Virus genome (UHGV): UHGV-0180761
DNA from: a virus
Reading direction: 5' to 3' (one strand)
Length of the DNA stretch: 13,254 nt
Shown here one piece after another: positions 3,675 to 13,249 of the stretch. The notes under the pieces were generated by a model. The model did no database searches and had not been told where the DNA came from. It saw nothing but the letters and a program-made list of their open reading frames with translations. The position numbers were made by a program, and so were the translations under genes. How positions within the stretch are numbered: the first letter of the stretch is position 1; every line of letters begins with the position of its first letter.

Positions 3675-4234
3675 GCGTTAGTTTCTCCACAGTCACGACA
3701 CGCCACGGCGCCCGGAGCTGCACACTCGCGGGCGTCACTACTTTCTGAAACGCAAAAGATTTTGTAGACCAGTGCTGCATGCTCCTGCAGCTTCGAAATT
3801 GAGAGATACAGCTCATCGTTAATTGCTGTCTTCTCATGCGGTTCCACTACACCGTCTTCAATTGCTGAACGAATCTGTTTTGAATAACTGCCGATCTGTT
3901 CAATGACTTCCAGCAGGCGTTGGTTGATATCGGCGTTGTCCACATCCTCGACGTCAGGAAGAGACACAAAGACGCCATTTGCAGACTGCGCCACAGCATC
4001 AGCAATGAAGTGAGTGCCACCAGCACGCTGTAAAACCATTGCCCATCCCAGCGGGAAAATCTGATCGCCATCTGCACGAAGGCGGTTGAATAAAGCGTTT
4101 TCTGTTACATCGAGCCAGTCAGCCGCTTCAGCGTAACCACCCGGCAACGCCGCGATAGTTTTTCTGACAGCTTTCACGTACCACTCAGGCTGTTTTTCTA
4201 TTTTCCAGTGATGCTTACCCACGGTTAGCCTCAT
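3671..4234 (-). CDS. ymfL: YmfL-like protein (187 aa), function unknown
   Basis: First gene downstream of cro on the minus strand, coupled to the YmfM-like gene by an ATGA overlap; C-terminal CxxC pair ([17 protein letters not shown]). Name by synteny and length (K-12 YmfL about 189 aa). Confidence 0.6.
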
Positions 4235-4265: not shown

Positions 4266-4466
4266 CTAATCTTTCGGATAGATATCCGGTCTTAAGTCAG
4301 ATTTCGTAATTGCACCTGACGTGCATTGCTCAAGTTTTTTAGCCAGCACAAAACTGGCTTTTTTATAGCCATTGAAAACCAGCCGTAAGTAGCCAGGTGT
4401 TGAGCCAACTTTTCCGGCCAACTCGCCCTGCTGTTCTTTGGTTAAAGAGTCCCAATACGCTTTCAT
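4266..4466 (-). CDS. croE: Cro-like repressor (66 aa)
   Basis: Short form MKAYWDSLTKEQQGELAGKVGSTPGYLRLVFNGYKKASFVLAKKLEQ with an HTH; GAGG Shine-Dalgarno upstream of ATG at 4466; divergent from the cI-type repressor across an operator region. The 167-aa ORF in the track is an artefactual extension through the operators. Confidence 0.75.
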   Translation of the reverse strand: MKAYWDSLTKEQQGELAGKVGSTPGYLRLVFNGYKKASFVLAKKLEQCTSGAITKSDLRPDIYPKD

Positions 4467-4468
4467 AC

Positions 4469-4493
4469 AATATGTACCTCCGGTGTACATATT
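4469..4493. promoter_or_regulatory. Operator-like palindrome AATATGTAC-N7-GTACATATT (OR site)
   Basis: Perfect 9-bp inverted arms directly upstream of the cro start, in the cro/cI intergenic region. Confidence 0.55.
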
Positions 4494-4520
4494 ACATGAT
4501 TGAAATGAACCTTCAAGATA

Positions 4521-4541
4521 CTTGTACCTTAACGGTACAAG
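4521..4541. promoter_or_regulatory. Operator-like palindrome CTTGTACC-N5-GGTACAAG (OR site), overlapping a putative PRM-like promoter
   Basis: Perfect 8-bp inverted arms 16 bp upstream of the repressor ATG; TTTAAT at 4545-4550 is a possible -10 that would give a near-leaderless repressor mRNA (inference). Confidence 0.55.
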
Positions 4542-4556
4542 GGTTTTAATTTCGTT

Positions 4557-5231
4557 ATGAAAACAATCCATGACATCCGGCGGTCTAACGCCAGAAAACT
4601 GAGAGATGGTGTTGGCGGGAATTCTTCCTTTGCCACTATGATTGATCGCGAGCCAACCCAGACCAGCAGGTTTATGGGAGATGGTGCTACTAAAAATATC
4701 GGTGACAGCATGGCACGACACATCGAAAAATGTTTCGACCTGCCTGTCGGATGGCTCGATCAAGAACACCAGACAACGAACATCACAAAAAAACCTGATG
4801 TTTCAATCACTAATAAACAAATCACATTAGTCCCTGTCATATCATGGGTACAGGCCGGAGCATGGAAAGAAGTTGGATATTCTGAGGTTGATTTGAGCAC
4901 AGCAGAAACGTATCCCTGCCCTGTACCCTGTGGGGAAATGACTTATATCTTGCGGGTGATAGGTGATTCAATGATTGATGAGTACCGCCCGGGAGACATG
5001 ATTTTTGTCGATCCTGAAGTACCTGCCTGCCACGGTGACGACGTTATTGCATTGATGCACGATACAGGCGAAACCACCTTCAAAAGGTTGATAGAAGATG
5101 GGACACAGCGTTATCTCAAAGCGTTAAACCCAAACTGGCCTGAGCCTTACATTAAGATCAACGGTAATTGCTCTATAATTGGTACAGTGATTTTCTCAGG
5201 AAAACCAAGAAGATACAAAATCAAAGCCTAA
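4557..5231 (+). CDS. cohE: CI-type prophage repressor with C-terminal S24 (LexA-like) autopeptidase domain (224 aa)
   Basis: C-terminal S24 motif (VIGDSMIDEYRPGDMIFVDPE ... TFKRL, Ser/Lys dyad context); divergent from cro; length equals K-12 CohE (224 aa). Confidence 0.85.
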   Translation: MKTIHDIRRSNARKLRDGVGGNSSFATMIDREPTQTSRFMGDGATKNIGDSMARHIEKCFDLPVGWLDQEHQTTNITKKPDVSITNKQITLVPVISWVQAGAWKEVGYSEVDLSTAETYPCPVPCGEMTYILRVIGDSMIDEYRPGDMIFVDPEVPACHGDDVIALMHDTGETTFKRLIEDGTQRYLKALNPNWPEPYIKINGNCSIIGTVIFSGKPRRYKIKA

Positions 5232-5270: not shown

Positions 5271-5303
5271 TTGACAATGTACCTTTGAGATACATAATGT
5301 ACC
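5271..5303 (+). promoter_or_regulatory. PL-like sigma70 promoter with two direct AATGTACC operator half-sites
   Basis: TTGACA (5271-5276), 16-bp spacer, CATAAT (5293-5298); AATGTACC at 5276-5283 and 5296-5303 overlap the -35 and -10, sharing the TGTACC core of the cro/cI operators. Confidence 0.55.
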
Positions 5304-5380
5304 CAAGCGAAACAACGAACAGGCAGGACGCCCACGAAGTAGCCGCCTGGGGCATATGAAGTCCAGGATGATTCGTTAGC

Positions 5381-5407: not shown

Positions 5408-5465
5408 AGCTCTTTAACAATCTGGTCCCCATCAACAAGTAACTGATAACTTGAGGAGATGTGAA

Positions 5466-5672
5466 ATGCACAAAACAGAACCCAAAATCGTCGCGCCTGG
5501 CTACACAGATGAGGAAATTTATGAGTGGATGACAAAGAAGCTGGCAGCTATAAACCAGCTTCGTGAAGTGCTGTCTTATCGACAGGAAACAATAGACTCC
5601 TTAAAAAAACTGGATCAGGAAATCACGGTTTTATCACAGGATGTTACTTTAGATATTGTGCAGACAAATTAG
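5466..5672 (+). CDS. Hypothetical small protein (68 aa), first ORF after the PL-like promoter
   Basis: ATG at 5466 with GAGGAG Shine-Dalgarno 6 nt upstream (the ORF track started at an upstream TTG); predicted helical/coiled-coil-like. Its 3-prime end overlaps the convergent 144-aa gene by 29 nt. Confidence 0.4.
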   Translation: MHKTEPKIVAPGYTDEEIYEWMTKKLAAINQLREVLSYRQETIDSLKKLDQEITVLSQDVTLDIVQTN

Positions 5673-6078
5673 GATCCCATTCATTTTCGTCAAAATCATC
5701 AAAGTGATGAATTTGTGATCTCCAGTCTCGATAATCTAAAAATTTCTGGGCGGTTACGCTTATTTTATCAAGTGTGAGTTCATCCTGAATTGAAAGAAGA
5801 AGTTCATCAAATTTCATCTCATTAATCTGTTTTGGCATCCAGTGATGCTTCATCAGAATAAGGTGAACCAGAGCCTTTTTCCCATTCAACTGATTATAGG
5901 GAGTGCCGAATTTCTTCCGGTGCTCATGTAAGACAAGGTCCAAAAGAGTAAGTAATGTTGCCCTTGATTCAACTTTGCTTATTTCGACTGATGACACTAC
6001 CCCACTGATTTCAATGCCCCGATACTTTCCAACATTTTCACAGTGGGATTTGTACAGCGTATAGATATTACCGGACAT
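5644..6078 (-). CDS. Hypothetical protein (144 aa), AT-rich moron gene of unknown function
   Basis: Clean ORF with AAGGA Shine-Dalgarno about 7 nt upstream of ATG at 6078; visibly more AT-rich than flanking prophage genes; opposite orientation to the surrounding plus-strand operon. No motif recognised. Confidence 0.6.
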   Translation of the reverse strand: MSGNIYTLYKSHCENVGKYRGIEISGVVSSVEISKVESRATLLTLLDLVLHEHRKKFGTPYNQLNGKKALVHLILMKHHWMPKQINEMKFDELLLSIQDELTLDKISVTAQKFLDYRDWRSQIHHFDDFDENEWDPNLSAQYLK

Positions 6079-6092
6079 TTCTTTTCCTTTTG

Positions 6093-6143
6093 CGTTGTTG
6101 GGGATAACCAGATTAACCGAATCCTTGTTGTTGGGGAATAACC
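6093..6143. repeat. Direct repeat GTTGTTGGGGATAACCAG / GTTGTTGGGGAATAACCAGG upstream of the 144-aa gene
   Basis: Two 18-20-bp near-identical copies (one has an extra A) separated by about 13 bp, sitting 15-65 bp upstream of the minus-strand start codon. Confidence 0.6.
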
Positions 6144-6364
6144 AGGTCCACCTCGCCTGATGTGGCTAAAAGCAGGCACATAACAGCTAAGTATTTTCAA
6201 CCAGAGAGAATCCTTAGCGTTGTGGTGAATGCGGCTCAGCGCACGCGGGTTAAGGTTGAGGCTGACAGTCGACCTTCTGTGGATACCCACCCGCCTGGTG
6301 TGCAACCTTCGCCAGGCACCGGGAGGCACCCGGCACCACAACTTTATGCTGTGTGTAGTCCTGG

Positions 6365-6410
6365 CGGTACCAGTTTGTACCCTTGCTTCCGGCTGGTACC
6401 GTCCTTTTTA
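6365..6410 (+). promoter_or_regulatory. Inverted repeat CGGTACCAG-N19-CTGGTACCG followed by a T-run; operator cluster or terminator-like element in a non-coding stretch
   Basis: Perfect 9-bp arms; the spacer contains TTGTACCC (same core as the cro/cI operators); followed by TCCTTTTTA. Lies in a roughly 400-bp GC-rich region with no convincing ORF. Confidence 0.35.
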
Positions 6411-6546
6411 CAAAACAGAGAAGAGCATCACCGGACGACGGGCTCATAACCCAATCCATCCGGGCGGCTGCCACCGCAGGTGTTCTTCTCTGTTTTGTGG
6501 AGAAACTAATCGGCCTTGCAGGGTCGATATGATGAGGAGCAGCAAA

Positions 6547-6909
6547 ATGGCTAGCGAACGCAGTACTGATGTGCAGGCATTTATCGGGGAGCTGGACGGC
6601 GGCGTATTTGAAACCAAAATCGGCGCAGTTCTCAGTGAAGTCGCTTCCGGTGTGATGAACACGAAAACCAAAGGTAAGGTCTCACTCAACCTGGAAATCG
6701 AACCATTTGATGAGAACCGTGTGAAAATCAAACACAAACTCTCATATGTTCGCCCGACTAACCGCGGGAAAATTTCCGAAGAAGACACCACCGAAACGCC
6801 GATGTATGTCAATCGCGGTGGTCGCCTGACTATTCTGCAGGAAGACCAGGGACAGTTACTGACTCTTGCCGGTGAACCTGACGGAAAACTCCGCGCAGCA
6901 GGTCGTTAA
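6547..6909 (+). CDS. YfdP-like prophage protein (120 aa), function unknown
   Basis: Start set at ATG 6547 (GAGGAG 8 nt upstream) rather than the 226-aa track ORF; 120 aa and position upstream of a YfdQ-like gene match the CPS-53 yfdP-yfdQ-yfdR arrangement as I recall it. Confidence 0.55.
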   Translation: MASERSTDVQAFIGELDGGVFETKIGAVLSEVASGVMNTKTKGKVSLNLEIEPFDENRVKIKHKLSYVRPTNRGKISEEDTTETPMYVNRGGRLTILQEDQGQLLTLAGEPDGKLRAAGR

Positions 6910-10865: not shown

Positions 10866-11705
10866 CTATCTAAATCTAACCTCACAAAACCAGTTATTTT
10901 CCGAGAGACAACTATAGAGTGCGGATTGCCAAGAATTTAAGCTTACCGATTTTTTTCCAGCTGCGGTTTCAGTCAAGTATTTTTTTAACTCGATACTCCC
11001 CCCCCCATCGTAAATTCTCTTTGCGATATATTCAATGCTCGCTAGTTCTTCAGCTGCATGTGATGCATAAAGAGCAGACAACTTAAATGCCTTAAAGTGA
11101 TACTTCATACGTTTAGCTAAAAGTGGGGGGCAATCTTCAGGTGGCTCTACATAAAACTCTATCGCTACAGGAATAGATTCCCGTATTTTTGCCTTAACCC
11201 AAACAAATGCTTCTACATCATCGTAATATGGGTGCAAAGTTTCTTCTTCTGAGCAAATTGGGATATCTTCGCTCTTTGTTTTATTACAATCCTGACAGGC
11301 TGGTATAAGATTAAAAGGCGATACAGCCAATGATGGAAAATGTGCTTTAGGTAAGTGATGATCTAATGTCGATACTACTCTTTGAGAACATAGTGGGCAT
11401 CTTCCATGATCTGGAAGTGACATTAACTTGTCATAATAGATACGCCCTGGGGCTAATTTCTTAGCCATTCTGCTTGTATAGACAACCTTCATTTCGTCAA
11501 CTGTAACAACAGTGGCAACATTGTCTTTAGGCAAAATTGTATGTAATTGTGCAATTGATACTTTTGCATCAAATTCTATTGAGGAATCTTCTATTTCTTG
11601 AGAACATGCTATAAGCCTCCTCTTTAAATCTTCATCGCGAACTCGATCAATGCATGCATTAAATACATCCAACGCACTATCATTCGGTTTTAAGAGTTTT
11701 TTCAT
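10866..11705 (-). CDS. HNH endonuclease-domain protein (279 aa), second gene of an ATPase-nuclease operon
   Basis: Zinc-finger HNH signature CPLC(103-106) ... DHHLPK(115-120) ... N132 ... CQDCN(137-141); the ATG overlaps the stop of the upstream ATPase gene (ATGA), so the two are translationally coupled. Confidence 0.8.
   Translation of the reverse strand: MKKLLKPNDSALDVFNACIDRVRDEDLKRRLIACSQEIEDSSIEFDAKVSIAQLHTILPKDNVATVVTVDEMKVVYTSRMAKKLAPGRIYYDKLMSLPDHGRCPLCSQRVVSTLDHHLPKAHFPSLAVSPFNLIPACQDCNKTKSEDIPICSEEETLHPYYDDVEAFVWVKAKIRESIPVAIEFYVEPPEDCPPLLAKRMKYHFKAFKLSALYASHAAEELASIEYIAKRIYDGGGSIELKKYLTETAAGKKSVSLNSWQSALYSCLSENNWFCEVRFR
10998..11006. repeat. Homopolymeric C9 tract (G9 on the coding strand) inside the HNH gene
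   Basis: Directly visible: ctccccccccccatc at 10996-11009; encodes Gly234-Gly236 of the HNH protein. Confidence 0.9.
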
Positions 11706-13249
11706 GATTGGTTTCTCTTAATTAAAAACAAAGCCCGCAAAATACCTCTAGCTTCAATTCCAAGTTGCCCATTGAAATTTTGCACAGCTGAATCGTAATC
11801 TTCGAATTTATTTACAGCATCGTCAAGAAGATTATGGAATCCAGAGTCGGTATTTTCCAATCCAAATACCTCCCTCGTTAGTATACCCACATTTTCACCG
11901 AAAGATTCTGTTTCTAGCCTTTCTACTTTAGACAAGTAGCCACTACGCCACAACTTCCACGTACAGCTTCGAGGAACTTCCTGGAGAACTACAGGAGAGT
12001 GGGTAGCTATTATAGATACTGCATTCCTATTAATTAATAAATCAGAAAGAGACCTTACAAAAGCTGATAATAATGGTGGATGGAGATGAGCTTCTGGTTC
12101 ATCTAAAAAAACCAAGCTTCTTTCTTCCATTGTCTCGACAAGTCTAGTGATAGTTAGCAATACAATTTTGTGCCCGGAACTTAAATTTTTGAATACTCTT
12201 CCTGCAATATCTTTAAACTCATCTTCATCTTGTCTATTCAATATTGATGCTACATTAATGTCAGCAAATACTGGATCTGACTCCAGCTTATCCACAGCCC
12301 TTTTCCAACGTTCAATTTTCCCTCCTGCCTTACAAGAAAGCATACTTTTCACGAATTCATTTTTCAATATAACAGGGCTTTTGGGCGGGAGACTTTTCTC
12401 ATCACCTTTTTTTACTCTTTTTAGTCCCACATATGAAAACTGTATACCTGTAGATTTATCTTTTTTTTCTGATAAAGGTTCTGTTTCATCAAAAGCGCTA
12501 AAAGTGACTGATACTACGTTAGAGAAAAGCTCACCAGCTAGTTGATCTTTAGATGAAAATTCACCGACTTTTGTTGGCGTTGTATTTTCGTCAATTAATG
12601 AACTAATCATATTATTCATTAAATGCGTTTTCCCAACACCATTCCGACCAATTAGCACATGAATATTTGTTGGGGGATTGCTCTCTGGTATCACTTCAAA
12701 ACTTAACTTAATACGGTCAGAGTCAGTGCCTTTCATCACTGGTGAGTTATATGAAAATGAATATTTTGAAAGTCGAGCACCTCCGTTCGCAAGTCGACGA
12801 AACTGTCCCTTAATAGATGTATGGCTGACGGATCTCAGAAGAGATATGCTAGTGACCCTCTCATTTATTGCTTTATTATATATATCTTCACTCAGAGCAA
12901 TATCATTAAGCGATGATAATATTTCATTTCGGATATCTTCTCCTAGTTCATTCAACACTTCGTAAAAACTATCATCTTGACCAACGGAGAAAAAACTCTC
13001 ATCTAGTTTTTCGAAAGCTTCAGGGATACTTGGTCTACTTTGACCTTTCGCCATATTCAATTGGCCAATTTTAGTAGAACCAATAATATTCTTATCCTTA
13101 TTTGAATCTATATAAACCAATGTATACATTGTAGAAAATTCAAACCAGTCATCCCAATTATCAGTAATTAAATAGGCACAGTTAGATTGTTCAACAGAGC
13201 ACATACTTCCCGCAGGCAGCACCTTAAATCTCATCTTTATCCCACTCAT
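11702..13249 (-). CDS. ABC-type (AAA_15/AAA_21-like) ATPase, 515 aa, with an unrecognised 200-aa N-terminal domain; first gene of the ATPase-HNH operon
   Basis: Walker A GRNGVGKT (aa 201-208, nt 12626-12649), signature-like LSSGHK (356-361), Walker B LVFLDEPE (379-386), H-loop ATHSP (415-419). In-frame TAA sits immediately upstream of the first ATG, 5 nt from the window edge, so the promoter is outside the window. Confidence 0.8.
   Translation of the reverse strand: MSGIKMRFKVLPAGSMCSVEQSNCAYLITDNWDDWFEFSTMYTLVYIDSNKDKNIIGSTKIGQLNMAKGQSRPSIPEAFEKLDESFFSVGQDDSFYEVLNELGEDIRNEILSSLNDIALSEDIYNKAINERVTSISLLRSVSHTSIKGQFRRLANGGARLSKYSFSYNSPVMKGTDSDRIKLSFEVIPESNPPTNIHVLIGRNGVGKTHLMNNMISSLIDENTTPTKVGEFSSKDQLAGELFSNVVSVTFSAFDETEPLSEKKDKSTGIQFSYVGLKRVKKGDEKSLPPKSPVILKNEFVKSMLSCKAGGKIERWKRAVDKLESDPVFADINVASILNRQDEDEFKDIAGRVFKNLSSGHKIVLLTITRLVETMEERSLVFLDEPEAHLHPPLLSAFVRSLSDLLINRNAVSIIATHSPVVLQEVPRSCTWKLWRSGYLSKVERLETESFGENVGILTREVFGLENTDSGFHNLLDDAVNKFEDYDSAVQNFNGQLGIEARGILRALFLIKRNQS

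Follow-up and report, generated by a model that had tools for sequence, protein, structure and literature searches.

A DicF- and STnc100-like structured RNA region ahead of yfdP in the early-left operon of a lambdoid prophage

The UHGV virus genome UHGV-0180761 was analyzed as a window of 13,254 nucleotides (nt), which comprises the immunity and early-left region of a lambdoid prophage of the SfV/SfIV/e14 type. Between an antisense moron (5644-6078, − strand) and the gene yfdP, the window contains a stretch (6144-6546) that had been singled out from its letters as GC-rich and non-coding, with three possible meanings: a structured RNA, a second set of repressor operators, or the remnant of a decayed gene. 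Its position and non-coding character are confirmed, and the interpretation is partly supported, meaning that the structured RNA is found and the operator set and gene remnant are not. The locus is a divergent, operon-embedded member of the DicF and STnc100 families of prophage small RNAs (sRNAs); because it belongs to known sRNA families, it is not a new kind of system. Its anatomy, homologies, strand, and conserved structures are what the analysis shows and are described first. From left to right, the region is composed of the following elements.

6148-6186: element B, 38 nt (CCACC..GCCTGATGTGG..AAAAG.CAGGCACATAAC), which marks the left-hand edge of the module conserved among SfV-type phages.
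6187-6219, + strand: 5' hairpin GCUAAG...CUUAGC, from the minimum-free-energy fold; the STnc100 alignment begins at 6189.
6219-6342, + strand: STnc100-type core, from Rfam RF02076, the fold, and the variation of its closing helix.
6343-6362, + strand: single-stranded stretch UUUAUGCUGUGUGUAGUCCU, homologous to the 5' part of DicF.
6363-6403, + strand: terminator hairpin that holds the inverted repeat, from the fold; stem of 13 pairs (6363-6375 with 6391-6403), loop of 15 nt.
6405-6409, + strand: U-tract of the intrinsic terminator, from the sequence; in read-through RNA, it supplies the first five pairs of element D as well.
6405-6503, + strand: element D, a long hairpin closing a three-way junction; fold of -51.2 kcal/mol, z = -6.7.
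6496-6509, + strand: conserved box UGUGGAGAAACUAA, an exact inverted repeat conserved across genera.
6509-6528, + strand: hairpin E (AUCGGCCU-UGCA-GGGUCGAU), from the fold; between D and the ribosome-binding site of yfdP.

The G+C content is 0.55-0.56 across 6151-6600, compared with 0.36-0.42 in the left flank and 0.38-0.50 in the right flank. The inverted repeat of the original prediction is formed by CGGTACCAG (6365-6373) and CTGGTACCG (6393-6401) with a spacer of 19 nt and is directly followed by the T-run TCCTTTTTA (6402-6410), which includes T5 at 6405-6409. The whole window has four GGTACC sites, a number that is not unusual, being attained in 10 of 200 shuffles. Folding favors the + strand, with z = -5.8 (0 of 100 shuffles as good) as opposed to z = -1.9 for the − strand. 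The structured RNA is further borne out by an STnc100 match, by similarity to DicF, by model scores that are likewise specific to the + strand, and by covariation in three helices, namely the terminator stem, the closing helix of the core, and element D. The Rfam matches to STnc100 and DicF appear only in E-value mode; at gathering thresholds, no match was obtained in the whole window.

The locus is common. A 481-bp query finds a match in 2861 of 5426 complete Escherichia coli genomes, in 1608 of them over at least 80% of the query, and the RNA region also occurs in Shigella serotype-converting phages.

The STnc100-type core and the DicF-like unit

With 43.1 bits (E = 1.1e-7), positions 6189-6411 of the + strand match the full length (1-206) of the STnc100 model (RF02076), and the GGTACC hairpin aligns to the 3' terminator of the model. 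The core is closed by a helix between GUUGUGGUG (6219-6227) and CACCACAAC (6334-6342). Inside it follow the sequence AAU, a small hairpin with GCUCAGCG, three variable hairpins, and the invariant hairpin CCGGG-AGGCA-CCCGG (6320-6334), which adjoins the 3' strand of the closing helix. Both boxes of STnc100, GGUGAAU and CACCGGGAGGCACCCGGCACC, are present in the window core, including an exact 20-mer at 6317-6336, and the copies of the window, P1, and Qin share one fold. A scan of viral contigs for the second box gave at least 120 stretches, which together with other loci yielded at least 119 distinct instances; among those listed, 109 have an identifiable 5' partner of the closing helix. These comprise 53 sequence variants of the helix with several pair types at each of positions 2-5. 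Pairing amounts to 88% and drops to 71% (maximum 75%) with shuffled partners, a comparison in which the best 5' partner was picked per instance and which, thus, somewhat favors pairing.

The window contains one copy of the core, and its first hairpin assigns it to the GCGGCUNAGCGC subtype. Further members of this subtype score 34.4 bits (Qin), 36.9 bits (Buttiauxella), and 34.9 bits (locus L064) with RF02076, as opposed to 52-72 bits for canonical copies. They sit in operons directly before a start codon: within dicF-dicB in Qin, ahead of tciA in the ban operon of P1, and ahead of yfdP in Buttiauxella. Several canonical copies have promoter-like hexamers upstream, TTGAC(A/C/G)-18-TAAATT as read by eye, from which transcription would start at the closing helix, and each of them ends in its own terminator. 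In the window, a terminator is present at 6363-6409, and a sigma-70 scan found no promoter upstream of the core. One canonical copy coincides with the Hfq-bound sRNA EcOnc27 (PMC12711010), and STnc100 is related to the Hfq-bound PasD sRNAs (bioRxiv 10.64898/2026.05.13.724894). PasB was also considered as the identity of the window sRNA and was rejected because it is located in a structural-gene operon.

In Qin, dicF and dicB are separated by an unannotated STnc100-type core (L039, 2955-3085; 34.4 bits), whose closing helix of ~20 bp begins directly after the U-tract of DicF. In the ban operon of P1 (L005, 1429-1625), a D-like element (34.6 bits with the D model R1 described below, loop GGGUUCAUAUCCC) is directly followed by an STnc100-type core, which is located just upstream of tciA. 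Both are unannotated in the P1 record, and upl, encoded on the opposite strand, has its start within the D-like element.

The core is followed by the DicF-like unit (6343-6409), consisting of a single-stranded stretch, a terminator hairpin, and a U-tract, as in DicF. The stretch UUUAUGCUGUGUGUAGUCCU, kept as GCTGTGTGTAGTC in many genera, aligns with UUUCUGGUGACGUU of DicF and may serve as a seed and as an entry site for RNase E. From end to end, the unit can be aligned locally with K-12 DicF at a score of 28, which 0 of 1000 shuffles attain. The Leclercia orthologue reaches a score of 47 with ~83% of aligned positions identical, again attained by 0 of 1000 shuffles, and in the units of Pseudocitrobacter and Superficieibacter, the alignment begins at the 5' end of DicF. 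With the Rfam DicF model (RF00039), the full-length match scores 15.7 bits in the window (6350-6404), 28.4 bits in Leclercia (E = 2.7e-4), and 76.7 bits for K-12 DicF itself.

The hairpin of the unit has a G+C-rich stem of 13 bp followed by C and U5. Its sequence in relatives changes to GGCGGCGTCTGA, AGCGGCACCTGA, GTCGGCGTCCGG, or GGTGGCGACCTGA, while the pairing and the T-run are retained. Across 18 relatives from ~12 genera, compensatory changes were found at five of the nine consensus stem pairs (for example, UA:8/CG:7, AU:11/GC:4, and CG:7/UG:5/UA:2/AU:2); the T-run does not vary (18/18). Because the stem covaries across genera in this way, the inverted repeat is an intrinsic terminator and not an operator.

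The place of the unit likewise corresponds to that of dicF, which lies in a repressor-controlled early operon after ydfABC-type genes: in the window, operators and promoter occupy 5271-5314, and the operon opens with a YdfC homologue. The alignments and model matches, together with this YdfC homologue, mark the window locus as a much-diverged homologue of dicF by both position and sequence. In other phages, the DicF-like unit is joined to other 5' domains, for example a Qin-type 'GTGACAACCCC' domain, which appears as a further sign of modular shuffling.

Two observations concern variants of the unit. In Phytobacter ursingii (L023, 2222-2300; L028, 1186-1264), a tRNA gene replaces the core directly 5' of the DicF-like stretch and its terminator; it scores 52.8 bits with the Rfam tRNA model and is called as tRNA-Ile by ARAGORN, with an odd length of 79 nt. 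The loops of the terminator hairpins (6374-6392 in the window; L003, L011, L030, L031, and L033-L035) occur in a short and a long form. The long form has an extra inner hairpin and a conserved GATAATGTTCTG box beside an AGGAGG-like stretch. The short form carries a pyrimidine-rich UUU..CCC motif, as DicF does, which could be an anti-Shine-Dalgarno sequence.

Element D and its conserved neighbors

No other part of the region is conserved as widely as element D, which recurs across many Enterobacterales. Its outer helix of 25 pairs (6405-6429 with 6479-6503) encloses an arm (6431-6463), which ends in the inner stem-loop GGG-CUCAUAA-CCC (6440-6452), and a variable hairpin (6464-6477). In an alignment of 20 sequences, 93.8% of cells are paired, compared with 40-56% when partners are slid, and 10 pairs show compensatory change; 0 of 500 shuffles attain the observed values. 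A covariance model built from this alignment (R1) gives 80-122 bits on the + strand and 28-46 bits on the − strand. In the window, it finds a single copy with 117 bits on the + strand and 37 bits on the − strand. No Rfam match was found for D. The element stands ahead of yfdP homologues in Salmonella ST64B, Leclercia, Enterobacter, Kosakonia, Phytobacter, Mangrovibacter, Atlantibacter, Superficieibacter, Scandinavium, and Pseudocitrobacter and, more distantly, in Providencia; in some phages, it stands ahead of other genes.

Residues 6436-6452 of D are identical at 16 of 17 positions to the anticodon arm of metZ, an E. coli tRNA-fMet, a similarity that 0 of 1000 shuffles attain. The CAU-containing loop is retained in the P1 and Providencia versions. 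Homology to a whole tRNA was rejected: ARAGORN found no tRNA in the window, the Rfam tRNA model gave no hit in 6320-6560 with E up to 10, and the similarity is confined to the anticodon arm. A BLAST match in a Klebsiella phage that bears the label tRNA-Arg falls just after the tRNA.

Klebsiella phages (L006, 1509-1578; L169, L171, L224, L245, and L270) carry the D junction as a stand-alone element of ~70 nt, located after tRNA-Asn and tRNA-Arg and downstream of the Q gene. It has an acceptor-like stem of 6 bp (GGCCUG/CAGGCC), followed by an encoded (A/G)CCA, and is recognized neither by ARAGORN nor by the Rfam tRNA model.

With its conserved 25-bp stem, D is a putative RNase III processing site, a class defined by ~20 bp or more of near-perfect double-stranded RNA that is cleaved in vivo or in vitro. 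D might instead represent an undescribed family of tRNA-derived phage RNAs and could act as a molecular mimic beyond a mere RNase III site, which we regard as unlikely. As such a mimic, it could act as a decoy for a VapC-type anticodon nuclease, which cleaves tRNA-fMet, or it could bind a factor that recognizes the CAU anticodon loop, for example MetRS, TilS, or IF3/30S.

Hairpin E is kept at its position in relatives with a different stem (CGGCGG..CCGCC). The UGUGGAGAAACUAA box pairs in part with the U-tract. As a further observation, the exact 14-mer TGTGGAGAAACTAA is found on both early transcripts, at 6496-6509 (+ strand) and 3678-3691 (− strand), where ~0.16 matches with up to two mismatches are expected by chance. 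The copy of the leftward transcript flanks element D; that of the rightward transcript comprises the last codons of the CII-like ymfL (3' end) and the ribosome-binding site of the next gene.

At the other end of the region, element B is 85-97% identical in SfV, in the loci of Kosakonia, Mangrovibacter, Superficieibacter, and Atlantibacter, and in Hafnia and Salmonella phages. Phages that have little else in common share it, each time with an antisense moron directly on its left that differs from phage to phage; in the SfV locus, a − strand open reading frame (ORF) starts at 2463 of L273. A promoter scan of element B found no sigma-70 promoter, and its sigma-54-like spacing is not conserved.

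The early-left operon and the proposed role of its RNA

The region is embedded in the following genes and control elements.

4266-4466, − strand: cro-like gene.
4557-5231, + strand: repressor gene, cI-like (ymfK type).
5271-5298, + strand: early-left (PL-type) promoter, TTGACA (5271-5276), N16, CATAAT (5293-5298), from a promoter scan (11/12 matches) and the sequence as read.
5278-5294 and 5298-5314: two repressor operators overlapping the early-left promoter, from an operator pattern search.
5466-5669, + strand: first gene of the early-left operon, 68 aa; YdfC homologue, phrog_1744.
5644-6078, − strand: antisense moron of the ECs1072 family, the left neighbor of the region.
6547-6909, + strand: yfdP, with Shine-Dalgarno sequence GAGGAG (6534-6539), ATG at 6547, and stop codon at 6907-6909, from RefSeq on the identical sequence; phrog_204.

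The early-left promoter is strong, points rightward, and lies directly past the terminator of the repressor gene. Operators of the form TGTACC-N5-GGTACA occur only here (5278-5314) and between the repressor and cro-like genes (4473-4539). The + strand genes follow in the order 68-aa gene, RNA region, yfdP (which starts at 6547 and not at 6548), yfdQ, excisionase, and integrase. Lying downstream of the promoter and amid + strand genes, the RNA region is therefore situated inside the PL-equivalent operon, and the promoter at 5271-5298 is the probable source of the transcript that crosses it. The 68-aa product is 41% identical to ydfC of the K-12 prophage Qin (tblastn) and establishes synteny with the dicBF operon, as the YdfC gene precedes dicF in Qin. 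Two candidates for a promoter of the core itself were rejected. By eye, a sigma-70 promoter would consist of just a weak GAGAAT (6206-6211) without a −35 element, and a sigma-54 promoter, suggested by a TGGC-N9-GGCA likeness in element B or upstream of the core, fails because the spacing differs among homologues.

The moron is accompanied by direct repeats GTTGTTGGGGA(A)TAACCAG (6092-6109 and 6127-6145), which are 35 nt apart just upstream of its start, and by a 20-nt inverted copy past its other end (5419-5438). The repeats, thus, flank the moron, resembling cassette ends or regulator sites, and they accompany element B in Kosakonia prophages. Beyond the integrase, an AT-rich segment adjoining the prophage end (10866-13249, − strand) holds a Septu-type anti-phage defense pair, made up of a 515-aa PtuA-like AAA ATPase (PDC-M01A/PtuA, E = 3e-210) and a 279-aa HNH protein (PDC-M01B, E = 2e-106).

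With moderate confidence, we consider the region to be the structured non-coding middle of the early-left operon RNA on the + strand and the counterpart of the dicF locus of Qin. DicF has no promoter of its own in the dicBF operon, and its 3' end is formed either by termination, giving 53 nt, or by RNase III 19 nt farther downstream, giving 72 nt (PMC5069750). In Qin, this RNase III end should map within the long helix that begins directly after the U-tract of DicF. Further properties of DicF used here were taken from the same source and from bioRxiv 10.1101/2023.04.14.536235. By analogy, transcripts would start at the repressor-controlled promoter (5271-5298), and part of them would stop at the terminator (6409), which would release an STnc100-like sRNA of about 190-220 nt. 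RNase E may trim this sRNA to a DicF-like species of ~65 nt, as it does for DicF. The sRNA would bind Hfq via its terminator and U-tail and base-pair with mRNAs of host or phage. Read-through RNA, by contrast, would form D, whose 25-bp stem begins within the U-tract and would probably be cut by RNase III; such a cut would detach the sRNA from the yfdP-to-int mRNA and define where this mRNA begins. The terminator would, hence, also gate the early transcription that reaches yfdP, xis, and int.

Several points weigh against this reading. Its functional steps are all drawn by analogy with the dicBF operon. The window scores remain below the gathering scores of both families, with 43.1 bits for STnc100 (threshold 47) and 15.7 bits for DicF (threshold 48, which the Leclercia unit does not reach either). 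No sigma-70 promoter turned up immediately ahead of the core in the promoter scan, and transcripts from the promoter at 5271 must traverse ~900 nt that include the antisense moron and its terminators. A simple terminator scan did not list the hairpin at 6363-6409, because its 15-nt loop exceeds the limit of the scan. Pairing with the start region of ftsZ, judged by duplex energy, was matched by 48% of shuffles in a crude test that ignores intramolecular structure (7% for DicF itself); a DicF-like target is therefore not indicated. Finally, the near-invariant three-way junction of D is not accounted for by RNase III cleavage alone.

The same elements might form a purely cis-acting leader or attenuator that limits and processes transcription into yfdP-xis-int, with the terminated RNA as a targetless by-product. 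This is possible, and we find it doubtful. It would agree with the promoter scan, which found no promoter belonging to the core, with the constant position of D and hairpin E just ahead of the start codon, and with subtype cores that stand straight before dicB (Qin), tciA (P1), or yfdP (Buttiauxella) without an intervening terminator. Against a targetless leader stands the single-stranded stretch 5' of the hairpin, which is conserved in sequence like a seed and aligns with that part of DicF that pairs with xylR (PMC5069750). Moreover, relatives of both modules are proven Hfq-bound sRNAs (PMC12711010; PMC5069750).

An antitermination RNA of the HK022 put type, in which the core would bind RNA polymerase, carry it past the hairpin terminator and those farther downstream, and replace the N protein absent from this phage group, is very unlikely. 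The repressor and operators are similar to those of HK022, and the folded RNA is located directly ahead of a terminator. An N-like antiterminator was also sought after the early-left promoter and was rejected, the 68-aa ORF there being YdfC-like and not arginine-rich. Put and nut sites, however, are paired, with put occurring as one two-stem-loop sequence in each early operon, whereas the core and D each occur once in the window, and the rightward operon contains neither. No resemblance to putL or putR was seen on reading the sequences, canonical cores are discrete sRNAs with promoter-like hexamers and a terminator of their own (PMC12711010), and in Qin, the core comes after the DicF terminator, not before it.

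That the region is a decayed protein-coding gene is extremely improbable. RefSeq annotates 6222-6532 as the coding sequence of a 'frameshifted hypothetical protein'; the yfdP frame is open for 106 codons upstream, and the SfIV record contains a 226-aa ORF that fuses the RNA region to yfdP, plus a 114-aa ORF on the opposite strand. The three annotations are probably spurious. None of the six overlapping ORFs matches a family in Pfam, NCBIfam, or PHROGs. Compared with the 77%-identical ST64B homologue, substitutions are spread evenly over the codon phases (25/27/26), and the gaps measure 1, 20, 1, and 1 nt, not multiples of three; inside yfdP, the same comparison gives 27/33/80 and one gap of 12 nt. 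No reading frame stays open across homologues from other genera, an intact homologous gene was looked for in other prophages and none was found, and conservation takes the form of paired helices.

Equally remote is the proposal of a secondary operator cluster, with repressor binding to the GGTACC repeat and controlling the yfdP-to-int block: the GGTACC and TGTACC hexamers do look like operator half-sites, and one TGTACC half-site lies in the spacer of the repeat (6376-6381), but 6144-6546 holds no 17-mer of the lambdoid type (TGTACC-N5-GGTACA, up to three mismatches), the half-sites are spaced by 13 nt and not 5 nt, the hexamer letters vary freely in relatives while pairing is retained, and phages whose immunity region differs, such as mEp460, carry the hairpin unchanged.

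Meaning and comparison with known systems

Literature searches on yfdP and on the sRNAs of ST64B returned nothing on this locus. New are the embedded STnc100 subtype below Rfam thresholds, including its K-12 copy between dicF and dicB; a DicF homologue in the very common yfdP-type prophages; and element D, a widespread covarying structure with an initiator-tRNA anticodon-arm mimic. Identifying the RNA locus also corrects the annotation of a region that is otherwise unannotated or called a frameshifted or fused protein. It further suggests a common design for the early-left operons of N-less lambdoid prophages, in which the production of a small RNA is coupled to gated read-through.

The window core shares with STnc100, PasD, and EcOnc27 the full-length model match, the invariant GGUGAAU and CACCGGGAGGCACCCGGCACC boxes, the closing helix, the multi-hairpin interior, and the 3' terminator. 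It differs in its first hairpin, which is of the GCGGCUCAGCGC subtype and not of the CCCCCUGUGCGGAGGGG subtype, and in lying within the early-left operon without its own promoter, whereas canonical copies are free-standing genes near Q, stx, and lysis genes.

RNase III processing hairpins are known from phage early RNAs, including the lambda N leader and the T7 early sites. In common with these and with dicBF, D has a long near-perfect stem placed, in an early operon, between an upstream RNA and the ribosome-binding site of the next gene; its conserved three-way junction is not required there, and its cleavage is putative. Mimics of tRNA anticodon arms, in turn, occur in mRNA leaders, such as the thrS operator. 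Unlike tRNA-like RNAs, D lacks a D arm and a T loop and escapes both ARAGORN and the Rfam tRNA model. Its stem-loop nevertheless corresponds to the anticodon arm of tRNA-fMet at 16 of 17 positions, and the stand-alone version of Klebsiella phages lies in a tRNA array and ends in (A/G)CCA.

Among the closest counterparts is DicF. The window unit departs from it by a longer stem of 13 pairs, by a covariance-model score of 15.7 compared with the threshold of 48, by the order of modules (core-sRNA in the window, sRNA-core in Qin), by the downstream gene (yfdP instead of dicB), and in that no pairing with ftsZ is predicted for it. In both cases, a YdfC-type gene precedes the unit within an early-left operon under repressor control. 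The two units begin single-stranded at the 5' side and continue into a GGCGG...CCGCC hairpin with a U-run behind it, the 5' arm and loop being ~80% identical as read from the alignment (UGGCGGUAyCAGUUU.UAC.CC), and both have an STnc100-type core adjacent to them and a long helix that starts directly after the U-tract.

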